In this document: piece after piece, positions 18,173 through 63,708 of the stretch | Layout of the letters: each line of letters begins with the position of its first letter | How positions within the stretch are numbered: position 1 is the stretch's first letter | Origin: an uncultured virus (IMG/VR IMGVR_UViG_3300045107_000066) | Lineage: Duplodnaviria > Heunggongvirae > Uroviricota > Caudoviricetes | Length of the DNA stretch: 64,000 nt | Strand: one strand, 5' to 3' | IMG/VR virus record: IMGVR_UViG_3300045107_000066 | Program-made: the position numbers and the translations under genes | Notes under the pieces: generated by a model | Seen by the model: only the letters and a program-made list of their open reading frames with translations | What the model was told of the DNA's origin: nothing | The model's database searches: none

Positions 18173-18603
18173 TCTGGTCTGCCCGCCTTCCCCTTGCTCC
18201 GGTTCTGGAGGTTCAAGTAGAAAGCAAAGGTCTGGCGGTTCGGAACCGACTTGTTGCCGTCGATGCCCCTGAACACCAGCTTTAGTTTAGTGTTGTCGTT
18301 CTCATATGGCAAGATGTCTTTCAACCGGGAAAGCACGCTCGCAATGAACGGCCATGTGCCGGTGATCCGAATCCCGTCCTCACCATACGACGACTTGCTC
18401 GGCCCGCCTTCGTTGCCATCCTTCATCGGCTGGATGTAAACGGGCAGGTCCGGGCGTAGTTTCTTCCAGATGTCGAGAATTTCCGCCTTCTTGGCAGACC
18501 AACTCTGGTGCGAGACGCCTTGAACGCCCGCACCAGAGTCGAATGCCTGTTGAGCGAACTCGACGAACTCCTGTTGCTCGAAGAACTCCTTGAAACTACC
18601 CAT
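18163..18603 (-). CDS. hypothetical phage protein starting MGSFKEF
   Basis: Clean ORF with TAAATA immediately upstream. Confidence 0.7.
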   Translation of the reverse strand: MGSFKEFFEQQEFVEFAQQAFDSGAGVQGVSHQSWSAKKAEILDIWKKLRPDLPVYIQPMKDGNEGGPSKSSYGEDGIRITGTWPFIASVLSRLKDILPYENDNTKLKLVFRGIDGNKSVPNRQTFAFYLNLQNRSKGKAGRPEGT

Positions 18604-18611
18604 GCCAGTAT

Positions 18612-19058
18612 TTAGCTGGCACGGATTTGTTTCACGGCTGCCCCGACGGTATTTCCGTCAACGGCGAGGTTCTTCCCCTTCAGGAGCTTCATCGCCACGC
18701 CCGTCGCCTGCCCGTCGGACTTCGCCGCCTTGATGTCGCCCTGGACGGAAGCGAGTTCCGCCAGGACTTGATCGAGGGACAGCATCACCGGCAGGTAGCC
18801 CGTCAGGATCACGTTCTCCTGCGTCAGCTTGGCGTGCCGGGGGTCGGTCGTCGGCAGGTGCCCCAGCGACTCCGTGTTGCCCTCGATGGCCTTACGGATG
18901 ACGCCGAACACCATCTCGTCGGTCGCCGTCTTGCTCTGGCGGATCGCCAGTGACTCGGTTTCGGCGACCACGACCTTCAGCGTGTCCCGGCGCACCGTGT
19001 CGCCGAACTTCATTGCGGCCGTGATCTCAGCCCGCATCTGCTCGATCAACTTGCTCAT
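18612..19058 (-). CDS. GatB/YqeY domain protein
   Basis: AEITAAMKFGDTVRRDTLK, ENVILTGYLP, GVAMKLLK, VDG. Confidence 0.85.
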   Translation of the reverse strand: MSKLIEQMRAEITAAMKFGDTVRRDTLKVVVAETESLAIRQSKTATDEMVFGVIRKAIEGNTESLGHLPTTDPRHAKLTQENVILTGYLPVMLSLDQVLAELASVQGDIKAAKSDGQATGVAMKLLKGKNLAVDGNTVGAAVKQIRAS

Positions 19059-20302
19059 GTCATCAGCCTCCGATCTTCGAGGTAGTGGTTCACCTGGAGT
19101 TCCCTGATCTTCTTCCCCATCTCCGGCCCAGGGGCAATCCCGTACTTCTCCTGCACTTCCGCCCCGGTGATCTCCGGGAGTTCGTACACGCACAGGTGTT
19201 CGAGCCGTTCCGGGCAGAACGGGACGATCTTCGAGAACTCCGTCAAGCTCTCCCGGAACCCCGGCCTGTTACGCAAGGCCAGGGACGCCTTCACCATGTC
19301 GTCCATCTTCGGCTCGGACGCACGGCAGGCGTTGTTCGTTTCCACCAAGAAGGCCACCAGATCGAACACATCGGCGGGCCACTTGGCTTCGAGGAGCTTG
19401 GCCTTCACCAAATTCCCCTTCGGCACGTCGCTCAGAATCACCCCTAACACGACGCTCGGGTTCTTACAGTTCCCGACCTGTGCAGCGTGTGCCCGGCTGT
19501 GGTTCAGTTCGGGCAGCACTTCGTCCATCAGGCCCAGCCCGTACAGGTTGAGCAAGTACGAACGAGTCCTGACCGACTGCTTCAGCCCGGCAAGGAACTC
19601 CTGCTGGATACGCTCCTTGCTGATCGGCTGGAGGGTGCGCTGCCCCAGGTGGTGCGGGCAGGGCTGGTTCAGACGCCGGTAGTAGTCCAGAGCCGAGTAG
19701 GTCTGGTCAGTCAACTGGCCGTCGCCCTCTTGCAGCACCGTGTCGTTGAACCGGGAGAAGAACCGAACCAACCGCAAGATGCGGAGCCGGTCTTCACCGA
19801 GTCGCCTCCACGGATCGCCGATGGTGCGGACGTGCTTGAACATCACGTCGTTGATCCCGCACGAGTAGTCGAGGACTTCCCCGCTCCCGATGTCGTAGAA
19901 CAACCCGTTGATGGTCAGGTCACGCCGGTAGTGATCGGCCTCTAGGTCACGGGTGTAAGTCACCTTGTCCGGGTGACGCCCGTCCCCGTCGGCCCCGTCG
20001 CTCCGCATGGTGGCGATCTCGAAGTCCTCGCCGTCCAGGTGCGCCACCATGACCCCGAACGCCTCGCCCTTCTCGAAGCAGCGGATGTTGGCTTTCTTCA
20101 GTACATCCGCTACCTCGAACGGCACGGCGTCAGTCACCACGTCCACGTCCTTCGACTTGAAAGGAAGGCCGTGAAAGCGAGCCAGGAGGAAGTCCCGGAC
20201 GTAGCCGCCGACAGCGTAGAACCCGAACCCGGCGTCCTTGAAGACCTTGTGGAGCTTCTGGACGGGCTTGGGGACCGGGATGTCGAACTTGTGTCGTTGC
20301 AT
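19055..20302 (-). CDS. cca: tRNA nucleotidyltransferase (CCA-adding enzyme, class II)
   Basis: VGGYVRD, DVDVVT, EIATMRSD...DGRHP, RRDLTINGL, EDRLRILR; nearby tRNA genes lack CCA. Confidence 0.85.
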   Translation of the reverse strand: MQRHKFDIPVPKPVQKLHKVFKDAGFGFYAVGGYVRDFLLARFHGLPFKSKDVDVVTDAVPFEVADVLKKANIRCFEKGEAFGVMVAHLDGEDFEIATMRSDGADGDGRHPDKVTYTRDLEADHYRRDLTINGLFYDIGSGEVLDYSCGINDVMFKHVRTIGDPWRRLGEDRLRILRLVRFFSRFNDTVLQEGDGQLTDQTYSALDYYRRLNQPCPHHLGQRTLQPISKERIQQEFLAGLKQSVRTRSYLLNLYGLGLMDEVLPELNHSRAHAAQVGNCKNPSVVLGVILSDVPKGNLVKAKLLEAKWPADVFDLVAFLVETNNACRASEPKMDDMVKASLALRNRPGFRESLTEFSKIVPFCPERLEHLCVYELPEITGAEVQEKYGIAPGPEMGKKIRELQVNHYLEDRRLMT

Positions 20303-20386: not shown

Positions 20387-20398
20387 CACGGAGTTTGT

Positions 20399-20629
20399 TC
20401 CCGGAGGGCACAACTGAGTTGCCAGTGAGGCTTTCGCCTCAAAGTGCCAACAGTTTGAAAGAATAAGGTTTGAAGCTTACAGTTTGACCCTTGACCACTT
20501 TAACGGTGCGGTAGGCTGTTGACGTTCGGCCTTTGAAGTAAAGGACCGCATGACCGTTTGCCGCTGTCTTGGGGTTCGGGTGTTAGCCCACGATTATTGT
20601 AGCTCAAACCCGTCAGCCGCCCTCCGGGA
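20399..20629 (-). ncRNA. candidate ncRNA with 11-bp terminal stem and ~7-nt periodic internal repeats
   Basis: TCCCGGAGGGC/GCCCTCCGGGA perfect inverted repeat; GTCAAGG GTCAAAC TGTAAGC TTCAAAC units; GAGGC-GAAA-GCCTC hairpin. Confidence 0.65.
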
Positions 20630-20657
20630 CTCCTAACGCCGGTCGCCCGGCGTGTTC

Positions 20658-21119
20658 TCACTCAACGTCGGTGACGTTGATCTTTGTGTTGGCGTTGTGG
20701 GCATCGACCTTGCCCTGGAGTTCGTCGATCTGGGCCGTCAGGTCGGCCACCTGCTTGTCCCGGTCCGCCTTGCGGATTTCGGCGACGTACTTCACCACCT
20801 GCCCCGTCCCGTAGCGGTCGGTCACGTTCCCGTGGACGACGCTCAGCCGGTTGAGGAAGGCGATCTTGCCCTTCAACTCGCTCAGCCGCAGGATGGTCGG
20901 CATGACCGGGAGCGTGGCCTTCTGGATCGCCAGCTTCAGTTCGATCAGGTGATCGACCAGCTTCTCACGCCGGGCGATGTTGTCGGCGATGCTGCCGACA
21001 AGCTCCCGCTCCGAACCCTCGACCACCGAGTTGTACGCAGCGATGTCGTTCTCGACCTTGCTGATCTTTTCCTTCACCCGCTTGATGTAGCGGAGGCCAC
21101 GAGCCAGTGTCATTTCCAT
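20658..21119 (-). CDS. DIP1984/'septicolysin'-like coiled-coil protein
   Basis: MTLARGL start, LIELKLAIQKA, C-terminal IDELQGKVDAHNANTKI; family recognised by eye. Confidence 0.6.
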   Translation of the reverse strand: MEMTLARGLRYIKRVKEKISKVENDIAAYNSVVEGSERELVGSIADNIARREKLVDHLIELKLAIQKATLPVMPTILRLSELKGKIAFLNRLSVVHGNVTDRYGTGQVVKYVAEIRKADRDKQVADLTAQIDELQGKVDAHNANTKINVTDVE

Positions 21120-21590
21120 TCTGTTCTCCTTGTGTTTCCCTTACCGATGTTTCGCTTCGAGGATATCAGCGGGGCTGCTGACATGCAACTCGAAATGATG
21201 ACGGGTCGCCCCGTCCCGCTTGTGATACTGCTTGGCCCACATCGGGGCACCCTTCTCCACGTCGCAGATCACGATCTCGTCTGCGGTGGAGGTAGCGGTT
21301 AGCTGATACCGCTGCATCTTCTTGTTGGCTTGGTCGTAGGTGTAGACGCTGTAGCTGTACGTCGTCTTCTCGATCCCTACGATGTTCTTGATCTCGATCT
21401 CGTCCGGCCGCTGGATGATCGAGACGTTCTCGACTTCCGCTTTGACCTTCGGAGTGGGGCTTCCACAGCCCGAGGCGCACACCGCTCCGATGAACATGCC
21501 ACCGATTCCTGCGATCAGTACAGCGGCACGCACCGAAATCTCCCGCATCAACATCGGATGCTCGTGGATAGTGTGCGACTTAGTGAAATT

Positions 21591-21890
21591 TCGGGAAGAC
21601 CAGTTTCGGAGAGACAACCCAGCCTACACGGCCTCCACCTTACGGCTTCAGCCTCGGCCAGATGTGAGTTCCACGGTACGGTCCCAGGTATTGCTACCTG
21701 GGGTGCCGTCGTTCGGCACGCTTGTCGCACACCCTTGCGGGGTACAGTACCCTAGCTATTACGCTTTGGGATCAAGCTCGCTATCACCCTTACGGTGTTC
21801 GCAACCTTAGACTCGTCAAGATGTAATCCCTCTACCTGTACCTGATTCATCACCAAGTACAAGCATCCTTGCGGACAGCATTCTTCCCGA
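21591..21890 (-). ncRNA. candidate ~300-nt structured ncRNA directly 3' of tRNA-Arg
   Basis: 9-bp terminal stem TCGGGAAGA/TCTTCCCGA; at least five GNRA-capped hairpins; no credible ORF. Confidence 0.7.
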
Positions 21891-21891
21891 G

Positions 21892-21962
21892 TAGCCCCTA
21901 CAGGAGTCGAACCTGTTCGACCTCTTTAGGAAAGAGGCACGCTTCCGTCACATCCAGGGGCC
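21892..21962 (-). tRNA. tRNA-Arg(CCT)
   Basis: Cloverleaf; CCTCT-TTCCTAA-AGAGG. Confidence 0.9.
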
Positions 21963-22426
21963 ATGCACTAAACCCTGTTTTGCCTCCCTGGGGGATGTGC
22001 AGTGCCGTGATACGGCTCCCCCAGGGAGGCTCAAGGGGAAGGAAACCCTCCCTTGATCCTTAACAGAGTTAAGTCTTGACGCAGAATCCGGTTCTCGGCC
22101 CGGTCGGCGTCTCTACCACTCGCCTCGGACATCCATACTGGATGAGCGCCCGAACGGCGATGGCAGCAACCTTACGCAACTGATCGAGTGCCGGTTCGTC
22201 GCCCGCACTCAGGGTCCAGGCGTCTTCCGCCTTGCGGACGTAAGTCGCCAGAGTCACCAGTTGCCCTTCGACGCCGTGGTCCCGTGCGTCGGCTCGGCCG
22301 CTGCCCTTGAGGGTTGACTGGTAAGCCAACTCCTCATTGATCGCTTCAATCACTTCCGGGGTCATCGTGACCAGCGGAAGTCCTGTCGTGTTTCCCATAC
22401 TACATCCTTGTAGCTCGTTTGTAAAG

Positions 22427-22505
22427 AGTCGCCGGGTGGAGTCGAACCACTTAGCAGTGGTTTTGCAGACCACCGGCCCACCCCGAGCCTTTCGCTTCCG
22501 ACGAC
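22427..22505 (-). tRNA. tRNA-Cys(GCA)-like, non-canonical
   Basis: GTGGT-CTGCAAA-ACCAC; U73; 9-nt linker between acceptor and D stem. Confidence 0.6.
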
Positions 22506-22708
22506 CTACTCTGTTCTTGGCTTAACCACCAGTGCTACCAGCTTGTCGCCGCACCACGCCGGTGCCCGAAGCATAGTCCACTGGTCGTGCGGATAGTGAG
22601 TGTTCAGTTTCGAGTACAAATCCGGCTCACTATCCGCCACCACGAACTCGGTGTCAATCCGTCGGCCTAGTCCTTGCAACTCTTCCAGGGTGATCGGCTG
22701 CCAGGACA

Positions 22709-32143: not shown

Positions 32144-34291
32144 TATTCGTCAGACTTGCACGACAACGTATGTGTCGGCGACTTCCAAGCCCATCCTCTC
32201 GTCGAACCCGTCAACGCTCTCCACGTCGGCAATGAGTTCAAGTTCTTGTAGTATTTCTAATGCCAGTTCGGCGTCGGTCCCAGGCTTGGGATTGTATTTA
32301 CCCAAGCCGCTCGAAGTTACACTTTCAAAAGACACAGGAATGAACTGGAATTTGTTTTTTCCTGCGGCCACAGCGTCTTCGAGCAGCTTGGGCAACTTGC
32401 TGAACCACTCGTCCAGCATCTTCTTCCGTCGTTCCGATTTCAGAGCCGCCGCCTTTTCCTGGTTGCGACGGATCGTTTCTTGCTGCCGCTCGTGGCCCTT
32501 GTCACGAGCTTCATCCAAGCTCCGCAGCATGGATGCCTTCCACGCCGAATCCTTCAGATCGTGTCCGATGCCCATGTCGTCCTCCTTGACCTTCTTTTTA
32601 CGCTTGCCGTAGTTGGTGGCCTTCGCAGCCGACTGGTCGAAGGGTCCACCGATGTAGCCAGCGTGGGTCATGTACCGAAAGTATTGGTCGTCCTGACTCA
32701 TACTTAGTTTTTACCGACTTTCGTCTCCAAACGCAAGATGCGTTCCTTCAGGTCGGAGTTTTCTTTCTTCAGGTCGTTGATCTCCTTCTCCAACTTCTCG
32801 ATGGTCGCCTTCGTCGTCTTGGTGTTCTCCTCGCTGTAGGTCTGCCGCTCCTTCAGGCCGACTTCCAGCAGGGCGATCTTCTCCTTGTGGAGCTTCAGGA
32901 GTTCGTCGTTGGCCTTGACCAGCTTGTCCAGGTCGTTGTACCGCTCCTTGCCGGAGTCACGGGCCTGGGTCATCATGGCGAGCCGTTCACGAATCTGAAC
33001 GTTCTCTTCCTTCATCTGGGTCAACGTGGTCGTGATCTCAGCACGAAACGTGGAGATGTTGTTTGTTAAGCTGTTAAGGATGACGGCCAGCAAAAGTGTG
33101 GTGAGGCCGATCAACGCACCGCCGAACAGCTTCCAGAACCACGGAGAGCCTTCGATGTGTTGCTGCGTTACTACTTGTTGTGCTTTGACTTCTTCTTCTT
33201 TGTCAGACATGTTTACCCCCTCTAGCGGTATGTATCGCTAGTAGGGGGAAACATCATGATTTTAGTCGTTCTTGACGGGGTGCAGCTTCGGGTGCCTCGA
33301 CGGGAACTTCAGAATGCTCCCGACCGGCTCCGGCTCGCCGCCGTCTTCAGGCATCGGCCGAGGCGGGGTGAGCTTGGCTCCCTGGCCCGTTTCATCGTCG
33401 TCCAACCCGTCCATCACCTTCACGATCAGCTTCTTGATGTCCTGCCGGTACTTCGGGTACTCCTCGGCAAGCCTCGATAAGTCGGAAATCAACTGAAAAG
33501 ACATATAACCCTCCCTGGTTGTTAATATAGTTACCCGTCGAGCCACTTGACGACATCTCGGTGGCTCTCCAGCACCAGGGACTCCTCCTCTGGGGCGATC
33601 ACCACGTCGTCGGGAATGGGCTGGACCCACGGCCCCAGAAAGCTGTCTCGGAAGATGGTGCGTTTGGGCACGTTGACTTTCAACGTGGCCCAGACTTCAC
33701 TCTCGTCGATCCGGGTGGCGTCCAGAACCCATTCCTTCAGTGTCATGATGACCCTTTACTTCTTGAGTTTCGCCTGGAGATGGGCGGACAGTCCTTTCTG
33801 TCCCTTCGCCAACTCCCGCTTGACTTCGTTCGCCGTCACGCCACGTTCACTGATGGTGGCCTTCGTGTTGATCGTCACCCGGCTGCCGAAGCGGTCGGCC
33901 ACGACGACGATCTTGTTCTCGGCGTCCACCATGCCGCCCTTGTTAGCCTCGGTCATAGCTGCCTTGAACTCGCTCTTGTCCTTGTCCTCGCTCTCCTTCA
34001 GGGTGAACTCCCAGGAGTGCCGGAGGTTGCTGATCCGCACCTTCACGCCGTCCTTGTTCCGCTCGACGACCTTCATCCCCATCGCACCCAGAACGGCGTC
34101 CGGGTTCATGCGGAGATAGTCTTCCACGACCTGCGGTGCGACCGGCAAAAGTACGACGGTTTCCGACTCTGCGGTAACAGTGGTCGGAGGAGCAGCAGCA
34201 AACGAAGCTGCCCCGAAAGCGATGGCAAGCATCGCCAACATAGCCCTAAGCATTAGTATACCTCACATATGGGGTGTGCGGTATTTATGCT

Positions 34292-60546: not shown

Positions 60547-60666
60547 ATGGTCGCCGGTGCAGTTCGCAACGCTGCTCCAACCCCCTAGCTTGGGGCCGTT
60601 CTATCGCCCCATGACAGACGGGGTAACTTTCCCGCTGGTGGAGCAAGCATTAAACTAACCGGCAAG

Positions 60667-60964
60667 CCCGAGTGGAGGGAGTTGAACCCCCGCCTCCGGC
60701 CCATAACGGCCGGTGCGCTAACGTTACGCCACACCCAGGATAACGCCGGAGGGGAAGGATTCACACCTTCACTAGCCGTAGTAGGTGGCCGTGCTGACTG
60801 TTACACTACCACTCCGGTTAAGCTCGGGAACCTGGACTTGAACCAGGACTTGCGACTAATGCGCCGCCGTGCTGACTTACACTACTCCCGAATATACCAG
60901 TACGGAGTCGAACCGTTCTTCCCCCTGGCCGGGGGCGTGCAGACCGTTACACTAAAATCTGGCA
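60667..60964 (-). ncRNA. tandem cluster of four tRNA-like RNAs with abnormal anticodon loops
   Basis: Units at ~60667-60739, 60746-60817, 60823-60891 and 60894-60964; each has D and T arms; loops of 8, 9, 6 and 5 nt. Confidence 0.7.
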
Positions 60965-60981
60965 AGTTCTTGCAAGAACAG

Positions 60982-63007: not shown

Positions 63008-63075
63008 TCCCCCGCACAGGTGTCGAGCCTGTTAGCCGTGGTTCGAAGCCACAGTACCGAGCCGTCGGGCAGGGG
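63008..63075 (-). tRNA. tRNA-Arg(TCG) with reduced D arm
   Basis: TGTGG-CTTCGAA-CCACG; CCGA-CGGC-TCGG; 68 nt. Confidence 0.65.
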
Positions 63076-63131
63076 ATACAGGCCGAACCTCGACATCATG
63101 CCGGGTTCGGCCGTATTACGTTTCTCACCGA

Positions 63132-63167
63132 GTTGTCAAAGACCCACCCGCCGGGTTAGGGCAGGCG
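63132..63167 (-). promoter_or_regulatory. rRNA-leader-type boxB hairpin plus boxA-like antitermination site
   Basis: CGCCTGCC/GGCGGGTG hairpin immediately followed by GGTCTTTGACAAC. Confidence 0.65.
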
Positions 63168-63174
63168 TTTCAAG

Positions 63175-63245
63175 TATCCCGTACAGGAGTCGAACCTGTT
63201 CTTGCAGCTTCGGAGGCTACCGTGCTTCCAGCACACTCACGGGAC
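63175..63245 (-). tRNA. tRNA-Arg(CCG)
   Basis: GTAGC-CTCCGAA-GCTGC. Confidence 0.92.
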
Positions 63246-63410: not shown

Positions 63411-63454
63411 ATCCGCTCGCCGCAACCAGTCGGTGTCACGTCACCGACAAACGC

Positions 63455-63554
63455 AAAAACGGGATCGGCTCAGGCAATCATAACTCTTGCCTGAGCCGAT
63501 CCCGTTTTGGTGATCTCTTTGGCTCAGGCTTTGGCTTTTTAGCCACCCTGAGCC
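63455..63554 (-). promoter_or_regulatory. transcription attenuator (alternative hairpins plus terminator)
   Basis: Four segments GGCTCAGG / GCCTGAGCC / GGCTCAGGC / GCCTGAGCC; the 3:4 stem is ~22 bp and ends in TTTTT. Confidence 0.75.
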
Positions 63555-63564
63555 GTCTATGCGG

Positions 63565-63708
63565 TCACTCAGAGTAGCGGGCGATGGTATCCCAACCTTG
63601 CTTCTCGACACGATGTCCCTGTTCGGGATTCGTAATGCGAGGGCACGGGCGCACGTTGGCCGTATTGGCTTTCCGCTGCATCGCTACTCTCTGGGTGAAG
63701 GTAAACAT
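63565..63708 (-). CDS. putative attenuator leader peptide (47 aa)
   Basis: MFTFTQRVAMQRKANTANVRPCPRITNPEQGHRVEKQGWDTIARYSE; stop codon ~10 nt before segment 1. Confidence 0.55.
   Translation of the reverse strand: MFTFTQRVAMQRKANTANVRPCPRITNPEQGHRVEKQGWDTIARYSE

Follow-up and report, generated by a model that had tools for sequence, protein, structure and literature searches.

Genomic setting of the locus

The stretch of DNA analysed here (64,000 nt of the uncultured virus IMGVR_UViG_3300045107_000066, IMG/VR; hereafter 'the window') belongs to a large phage-like genome and carries 52 tRNA genes by ARAGORN, every one of them on the minus strand. Pfam searches additionally revealed genes for translation or tRNA care, namely a CCA-adding enzyme, a GluRS-like protein, PTH2, YqeY and NADAR. 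Many proteins of the window have counterparts with 25-70% identity in the IMG/VR record G001 and in LR756511.1 (595 kb), both of which contain similar tRNA arrays.

The block of interest is encoded on the minus strand, as are all features described below unless stated otherwise. It comprises a 109-aa ORF (22069-22398), a structured element of about 110 nt (22074-21964), a tRNA-Arg(CCU) gene (21891-21962), a structured RNA of 300 nt (21890->21591) and a further ORF (21141-21554). The 109-aa ORF has 79 relatives and represents a phage family without a Pfam match; its atlas clusters are mainly viral and the occurrence of MazG in 29% of the members of one cluster provides a MazG-like lead. The N-terminus of the downstream ORF is hydrophobic with a cysteine and appears lipoprotein-like by eye; Pfam matches and viral relatives were not found for it and the atlas was uninformative. 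A phage CCA-adding enzyme (tRNA nucleotidyltransferase) is encoded 1.3 kb downstream of the 300-nt RNA (19055-20302; PolyA_pol, E 2e-30; best phage matches annotated as tRNA nucleotidyltransferase). Between these two, a 153-aa ORF (20658-21119), which presumably resembles the DIP1984 type and gave no DIP1984 match in Pfam, is followed by a structured gap (20390-20657, z -5.0) with repeated TCAAA-type motifs. Its homolog in G001 has a similar motif-rich trailer (L113:1430-1660), and ORF and trailer are a possible protein-ncRNA pair.

Two sigma-70-like promoter candidates, identified purely as consensus matches, are located at 22397-22425 and 22657-22629, and no terminator-like site is present on the minus strand between 22657 and 21141. 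The promoter-like sites together with the lack of a terminator-like site before the downstream ORF suggest a single precursor. The downstream start codon lies only 37 nt past the RNA, a gap that likewise contains no terminator-like site, and the folded 300 nt could hence act in cis once the tRNA is excised, protecting or regulating the mRNA of the lipoprotein-like gene as its 5' leader. This reading appears improbable to us, as the RNA is far larger and more conserved than a stabilising hairpin requires, and no alternative fold, be it of a terminator or a ribosome site, is apparent.

A structured RNA of 300 nt on the minus strand

The original prediction, made from the sequence alone, held that a structured RNA of about 300 nt follows the tRNA. 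Folding bears this out for the minus strand, for which we obtained -128 kcal/mol and a z-score of -4.29 (0/100 shuffles equally stable); paired changes in a sequencing run (X19, see below) point in the same direction. The plus-strand fold of 21591-21890 reached z -1.63, with 12 of 200 shuffles equally stable, and DNA folding parameters gave z-scores of only -2.4 and -1.9. Low folding energy alone does not set the RNA apart within the window: among 639 minus-strand tiles of 150 nt, those of the upstream element plus tRNA and of the 5' half of the RNA rank 10th and 17th. The lowest tile z-scores (-10.9 to -7.0, 10 shuffles each) were observed on the minus strand for 32251-32400, 18451-18600, 63451-63600, which contains a long inverted repeat within the tRNA array, and 63051-63200. 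Counted mechanically, the 300-nt RNA contains five GNRA hairpins compared to 0.73 in shuffles, five being reached in 3 of 5000; one of the five (21853) is absent from the predicted fold. At least four such hairpins combined with a closing stem of at least 8 bp occur in this RNA only, i.e. in one of 195 tRNA trailers from the window and three other phage records.

In the predicted fold, helix P1 closes a large multibranch with the arms P2 and P3, the P4 domain, P5, the four-way junction P6 and P7. P1 (21890-21882 with 21599-21591) is the anticipated 9-bp closing stem, all of it Watson-Crick, with inner pairs at p about 1.0; its 5' strand is identical in the runs X8, X9 and X12, while its 3' strand is uncovered in the runs compared. 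P2 (21865-21876, p 0.56-0.86) is the hairpin TCC-GCAA-GGA with a GCAA tetraloop at 21872, which is unchanged in X8 and X9. P3 (21834-21864, p > 0.9) is a 13-bp hairpin with a GAUGA loop and contains the expected TGTAC/GTACA pairing. In the P4 domain (21768-21830, defined by fold probabilities), a GGGAU/AUCCC helix surrounds a stem, a purine-rich internal loop and the hairpin CACC-GUAAG-GGUG; the 5' strand of this domain has two near-equal partners, 21772-21768 (p 0.37) versus the long-range 21615-21609 (p 0.39). P5 (21754-21765) is a 3-bp hairpin with a GUAAUA loop (p 0.72-0.78), unchanged in X19. P6 (21675-21751), again defined by fold probabilities, is closed by GGUAC/GUACC and bears three hairpins with GCAA, AACGA and GCAA loops, the two GCAA hairpins being CCC-GCAA-GGG (loop 21738) and CCCAGGTA-GCAA-TACCTGGG (loop 21694). 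P7 (21617-21663, p 0.57-1.0), an arm with a GAA/GGA internal loop and the GUAA tetraloop hairpin GCC-GTAA-GGT (21643), is uncovered by relatives.

The predicted stem GTGCCG/CGGCAC (21719-21703) is part of this fold as well, as are all hairpins listed in the original prediction. One of these, however, was read as CC-GTAA-GG and is instead a 4-bp CACC/GGUG stem with a GUAAG pentaloop (21797-21785, p 0.99, register backed by X19), leaving four true GNRA tetraloops. Candidate pseudoknots (region 21726-21722/21613-21609, 21827-21823/21762-21758 and 21777-21773/21724-21720) are 5-bp complements as expected by chance. The hairpin loops of the RNA contain no palindromic 4-mer and thus no evident self-kissing site.

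Relatives and covariation

Words of 21450-22150 are 96-100% present in four hot-spring or microbial-mat sequencing runs, two of them flagged as possible sources. Relatives were taken from 4 of 20 listed runs, which aligned to 21250-22450 at 80% likeness; 16 of the 20 contain only a small share of the words, and the runs outside these four give no evidence of habitat. In the four runs compared, matches with 1-6 differences cover the block 21701-22050, and the uncovered state of the flanking ORFs is not readable as absence. Two of the four are metatranscriptomes; contigs do not reveal the ends, strand or level of an RNA, and DNA can be present in an RNA library. Contigs of X8, X9 and X12 run from the upstream element through the tRNA, for which no differences are listed, into the start of the 300-nt RNA. 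Judging from these alignments, the conserved block consists of the upstream RNA, the tRNA and the 300-nt RNA.

X19, a soil RNA library, contributes one 170-nt contig (depth 3.4) that lies wholly inside the 300-nt RNA. Over 21701-21837 it shows six differences, five of which are listed: two pairs of the GUAAG hairpin have each changed in a compensatory manner, from A-U to U-A (21796/21786) and from C-G to G-C (21795/21787), which accounts for four, and the fifth falls into the internal loop. A loose end of 25 letters was compared with 21676-21700 by hand and without gaps; nine flanking bases and the GCAA loop are kept, and in the hairpin 21702-21683 all twelve positions of the six inner pairs have changed and still pair (four Watson-Crick, two U-G). 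In total, 8/8 doubly changed pairs remain paired, two of them as U-G, with both loops retained. The chance of this outcome is (4/9)^8, about 0.002 by hand calculation, to be read with the fact that six of the pairs belong to one hairpin and may reflect a single event. X19 also differs along the 3' strand of P3, the partner strand of which lies outside the contig, and in X9 the P3 pair U-G at 21856/21842 becomes U-A. By comparison of sequences, the changes in X19 are true covariation, drawn from one low-depth contig over 170 nt without P1 and P7, and they are compensatory changes of the kind looked for in a functional structured ncRNA.

The ORFs overlapping the 300-nt RNA are short or shadow frames and the changes in X19 track base pairs, which makes a coding role unlikely. 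We have high confidence that the structured RNA on the minus strand is real, and it is almost certain that its multi-branched fold of about 300 nt is encoded and maintained by selection on RNA structure.

A stretch of 84 nt (21785-21702) is without listed difference in X19, right beside freely covarying helices. Such a pattern is expected where a partner reads the sequence, and the RNA might accordingly be a protein-binding decoy or the core of an RNP that binds a host or phage protein (e.g. a tRNA-cutting anti-phage nuclease or an RNA chaperone) and shields the phage tRNA pool without forming an RNA-only cage. The richness of the window in translation and tRNA-care genes and its 52 tRNAs would fit. 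On the other hand, sequence conservation is equally explained by tertiary contacts, and a linked partner gene was not found: the 300-nt RNA did not turn up at any of 41 loci retrieved through the upstream ORF family. We regard this possibility as rather unlikely.

The upstream element (22074-21964) folds into a three-way junction that ends at the tRNA 5' end, with z -6.11 and 0/200 shuffles as stable. By eye, UGCAC in its long hairpin may form a pseudoknot with GUGCA beside the tRNA. In X12, an A-U pair becomes U-A at 22017/21995, and the change at 21995 also occurs in X8 and X9. A one-sequence model of the element (R2) matches the window only. Since both flanks of the tRNA are structured and conserved, and the contigs of X8, X9 and X12 reach from the upstream element across the tRNA into the first part of the 300-nt RNA, the block could also be one composite RNA, about 480 nt long (22074-21591), in which the tRNA forms a domain or linker. 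The whole 516 nt folded together reach z -6.8, the D stem of the tRNA is weak, and GOLLD linkers are described as sometimes housing tRNAs (PMC12286853). Nevertheless, we judge this to be unlikely: each module closes on itself, the sole complement across the tRNA found by eye is 6 bp long (22075-22070/21582-21577) and within chance, and tRNA-Arg shares its C74-U75 end with the other 48 tRNA genes, suggesting normal processing.

A common tRNA ending in the phage clade

The tRNA-Arg(CCU) gene was called by ARAGORN and reached 40.5 bits with the Rfam tRNA model in a sensitive scan; a fast-filter scan missed it. CCA is not encoded, and the gene ends A73-C74-U75. At the junction, the discriminator A is 21892, C74 is 21891 and U75 is 21890, the latter being the first base of P1. 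The predicted start of the RNA 1 nt past the discriminator is hence exact in position, but the spacing is not special: in the window (21891 to 63826), 49/49 scorable tRNA genes, out of 52 called, end discriminator-C-U, and none encodes CCA. The same ending was found in the clade relatives G001 (41/43) and LR756511.1 (52/58). Other jumbo phages keep C74 but mainly show a CA ending (24/27, 14/18 and 25/45), and in G004 CCA is encoded in 24 of 25 tRNA genes. With C74-U75 in every scorable tRNA gene, the 1-nt gap is a clade-wide tRNA ending and not specific to the 300-nt RNA; comparison of the sequences suggests a clade-specific 3'-processing signal. In the mostly open-access literature, we found nothing on a strict CU tRNA ending.

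Several unusual tRNA-like genes were observed in the window. One with anticodon GCA at 22427-22505 was missed by ARAGORN and matches Rfam tRNA-Sec weakly (25.9 bits, E 0.016); by eye, it has a long acceptor stem, a 4-bp T stem, an enlarged D region and a C-U end. A 116-nt element between tRNAs (60549-60664, z -3.8), called by neither ARAGORN nor Rfam, combines a long branched arm with a stem that resembles an acceptor stem and ends in A-C-C. Next to it, at 60666-60980, lie several tRNA-like genes of aberrant form; two were called by ARAGORN, with undetermined anticodons, and one near 60895-60965 was not called.

Could the RNA itself be the agent of 3'-end maturation, i.e. a ribozyme, either cleaving the precursor it is part of at C74/U75 or serving NCU-ended tRNAs in trans? 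Its first base is U75, C74-U75 is common to all 49 scorable tRNA genes, its size and branching are within the range of catalytic RNAs, and theta ribozymes offer a precedent at phage tRNA 3' ends (PMC10879173). However, core motifs of RNase P, of group I and II introns and of the hammerhead are absent, the 5' end has, by eye, no nested double pseudoknot of the HDV type, and no Rfam ribozyme matched. Moreover, the relatives G001 and LR756511.1 carry the CU signature and gave no match to a one-sequence model of the RNA (R1), arguing that the signature needs no such RNA family as far as a model of this kind can tell. A ribozyme is therefore improbable, and a new class of large catalytic RNA (300 nt, perhaps plus the 110-nt module), which would be a 3'-end counterpart of RNase P that cuts at discriminator-C-U and frees itself from tRNA-Arg, is very improbable.

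Search for homologs

A full-length homolog was not found in IMG/VR, JGI metagenomes, GTDB or the phage and plasmid collections by searches with exact patterns or one-sequence models (R1 and R2), which were run without positive control and can miss distant relatives. Blastn of the 300-nt RNA against phages yielded 12 short chance matches covering at most 14% of it, and the whole unit gave none against plasmids. Pattern searches in viral DNA returned 67 and 30 loci without a significant nhmmer match, and two further patterns were matchless. No match was obtained in a metagenome search with 21-mers, and none with patterns in GTDB apart from one chance match behind an ordinary tRNA-Arg. Routes via neighbouring proteins led to 6 loci, two empty searches, and then 32 metagenome and 9 viral loci, in which the RNA was absent by nhmmer; with R1, it was absent from 46 sources from these routes. 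Applied to whole records, R1 detected the RNA in 0/16 and 0/5, and gave no match across 220 kb of LR756511.1. Related loci also contained three GNRA-rich spots, which turned out to be coding sequence or unrelated. The homolog search and covariation check proposed with the original prediction have thus yielded paired changes in one contig, but no full-length homolog.

The RNA was undetected in 21 phage records, among which kinship to the clade was shown for G001 and LR756511.1 only, and it occurs as a single copy in the window. Such a patchy distribution might point to a non-functional remnant or, with the 9-bp ends as potential terminal repeats, to a small mobile insert; the RNA could also be a motif already published outside Rfam. 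These readings are hardly probable. Compensatory changes and strand-specific folding speak against a remnant, the single copy and the lack of a target duplication at the ends against an insert, and the viral candidate set in the available text of PMC10690425 spans just 29-151 nt; a fragment of the RNA might be among these short candidates.

LR756511.1 contains another unclassified GNRA-rich RNA of about 320 nt (290228-290556, minus strand; L198:228-556) with an 8-bp closing stem and z -5.0. An aberrant tRNA whose anticodon loop is enlarged precedes this RNA by about 60 nt; the RNA has no Rfam match and was found in no other phage record. R1 gives it 2.7 bits, and we hence treat it as an analogue rather than as an established homolog. 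Among tRNA-like pieces of L198:520-1160 (minus strand), a short motif that ends in CTTACAAAC recurs five times, and it occurs once inside the 320-nt RNA. Given the CU ending of the clade and this second unclassified RNA, tRNA trailers of jumbo phages may hold several undescribed RNA families along with an uncharacterised 3'-processing rule.

Proposed mechanism

We suggest that an upstream promoter drives the 300-nt RNA together with tRNA-Arg(CCU), in one precursor that would span ORF, upstream RNA, tRNA and 300-nt RNA. A cut by RNase P at the tRNA 5' end would free the upstream RNA of about 110 nt, and a 3' cut at or just past C74 would free the 300-nt RNA, the 5' end of which would be hidden within P1, before the phage CCA-adding enzyme completes the tRNA. 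The tRNA would thus serve as punctuation, and P1 would shield both ends of the RNA. A point against this scheme is that C74 hinders RNase Z. In Bacillus subtilis, RNase P and RNase Z are described to process CCA-less precursors, followed by CCA addition (PMC1874595). Release from a tRNA precursor, as originally predicted, is plausible, and the sequence of co-transcription, release by RNase P and a 3' cut, and CCA addition by the phage enzyme is probable.

Once released, the RNA may act in trans as a stable structural scaffold that accumulates during infection. Its GNRA loops and purine-rich internal loops could pack by A-minor contacts into a compact fold or a homo-oligomer, as in ROOL and GOLLD. 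This step is drawn by analogy and is the weakest of the three; we put it forward tentatively. Speaking against it are a length about half that of ROOL and GOLLD, hairpin loops that lack a palindromic 4-mer, and no likeness to GOLLD by sequence or model. Our preferred, if provisional, reading is accordingly that of a large, so far undescribed jumbo-phage RNA which tRNA processing sets free and which might form a compact GNRA-packed scaffold like ROOL and GOLLD.

Comparison with known systems

Rfam 15 detected tRNAs alone at gathering score over the window, and at E <= 10 over 21400-22700 nothing matched the 300-nt RNA; a known family is therefore not recognised. We found no core pattern of RNase P (CR-I and CR-V with the P4 pseudoknot), of group I introns (intron P7 core elements) or group II introns (domain V), nor of tmRNA, SRP RNA, hammerhead or pistol. 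ARAGORN found no tmRNA, with its tRNA-like domain and tag reading frame, within the window and Rfam matched none, so that the predicted absence of RNase P, tmRNA and intron signatures holds. The mostly open-access literature contained no description of the 300-nt RNA that we could find. From the 'undescribed large ncRNA class' of the original prediction, an undescribed structured ncRNA stands (no Rfam or GOLLD match, compensatory changes), while a class is not yet shown, as clear divergence was seen in a single relative that spans about 170 of the 300 nt.

The phage RNAs GOLLD and ROOL, encoded close to tRNA islands, are reported to form RNA-only cages via A-minor and kissing contacts (PMC12286853). 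Like GOLLD (RF02032), the 300-nt RNA is large, contains GNRA loops, is encoded by a phage, has no known function and begins immediately behind a tRNA; GOLLD env-38 is described to start after tRNA-Met and GOLLD linkers to contain tRNAs at times (PMC12286853), and the copy in LR745206.1 also follows a tRNA. Unlike GOLLD, which exceeds 800 nt, it measures 300 nt and is closed by its own terminal stem. GOLLD searches were controlled with two real copies (RF02032, 275-287 bits). These full GOLLD RNAs are located in two unannotated huge-phage records, LR745206.1 (420875-421280, 287 bits) and LR756502.1 (434685-435091, 275 bits), and have conserved 5' domains. With regard to the 3' domain, RF02032 had no hit on the 300-nt RNA at E <= 10. 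A model of the two 5' domains (R3, filters off) gave 6 weak hits, none on the RNA, and R1 on the GOLLD loci reached at most 7.7 bits (E 0.16). Local alignment with the two full loci was at shuffle level (174/300 and 38/300 shuffles score as high). A likeness to a GOLLD 5' hairpin (AAAC-stem-GAAA-stem-GAUA) was rejected for its other pairing register and the negative alignment and model tests.

With ROOL (RF03087), described as an ornate RNA-only cage (PMC12286853), the RNA shares the tRNA context in a phage, yet it has only about half the length of the 574-position ROOL model. RF03087 did not match at E <= 10, an exclusion by the Rfam scan alone and without positive control. The original prediction likewise noted that both families sit beside tRNAs but are longer.

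Theta ribozymes are described as self-cleaving RNAs at the 3' ends of phage tRNAs without an encoded CCA, and the genomes concerned are enriched for CCA-adding enzymes (PMC10879173). The 300-nt RNA lies in a comparable place, and its start at U75 would fit a cleavage site within 5 nt of the tRNA 3' end. Theta ribozymes have a minimal HDV fold, though, whereas the RNA described here is a 300-nt multibranch in which the first bases pair with the last. An HDV-like nested double pseudoknot at the 5' end was rejected from the predicted fold, the helix list and inspection by eye, and had no Rfam match. Bacterial RNase P RNA is similar in its length of about 300 nt, its P1-closed ends, its hairpin-rich junction and its tRNA context, but its universally conserved CR-I and CR-V motifs are missing here and Rfam found no match.

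Few large ornate RNAs, all of enigmatic function, are known from bacteria and phages. Backed by covariation, a member of just 300 nt would be a small, tractable case for cryo-EM and a route to the function of tRNA-linked phage RNAs. On present evidence, the 300-nt RNA is a thinly sampled, undescribed family of a known kind, which resembles the tRNA-linked ornate phage RNAs and belongs to none of them.
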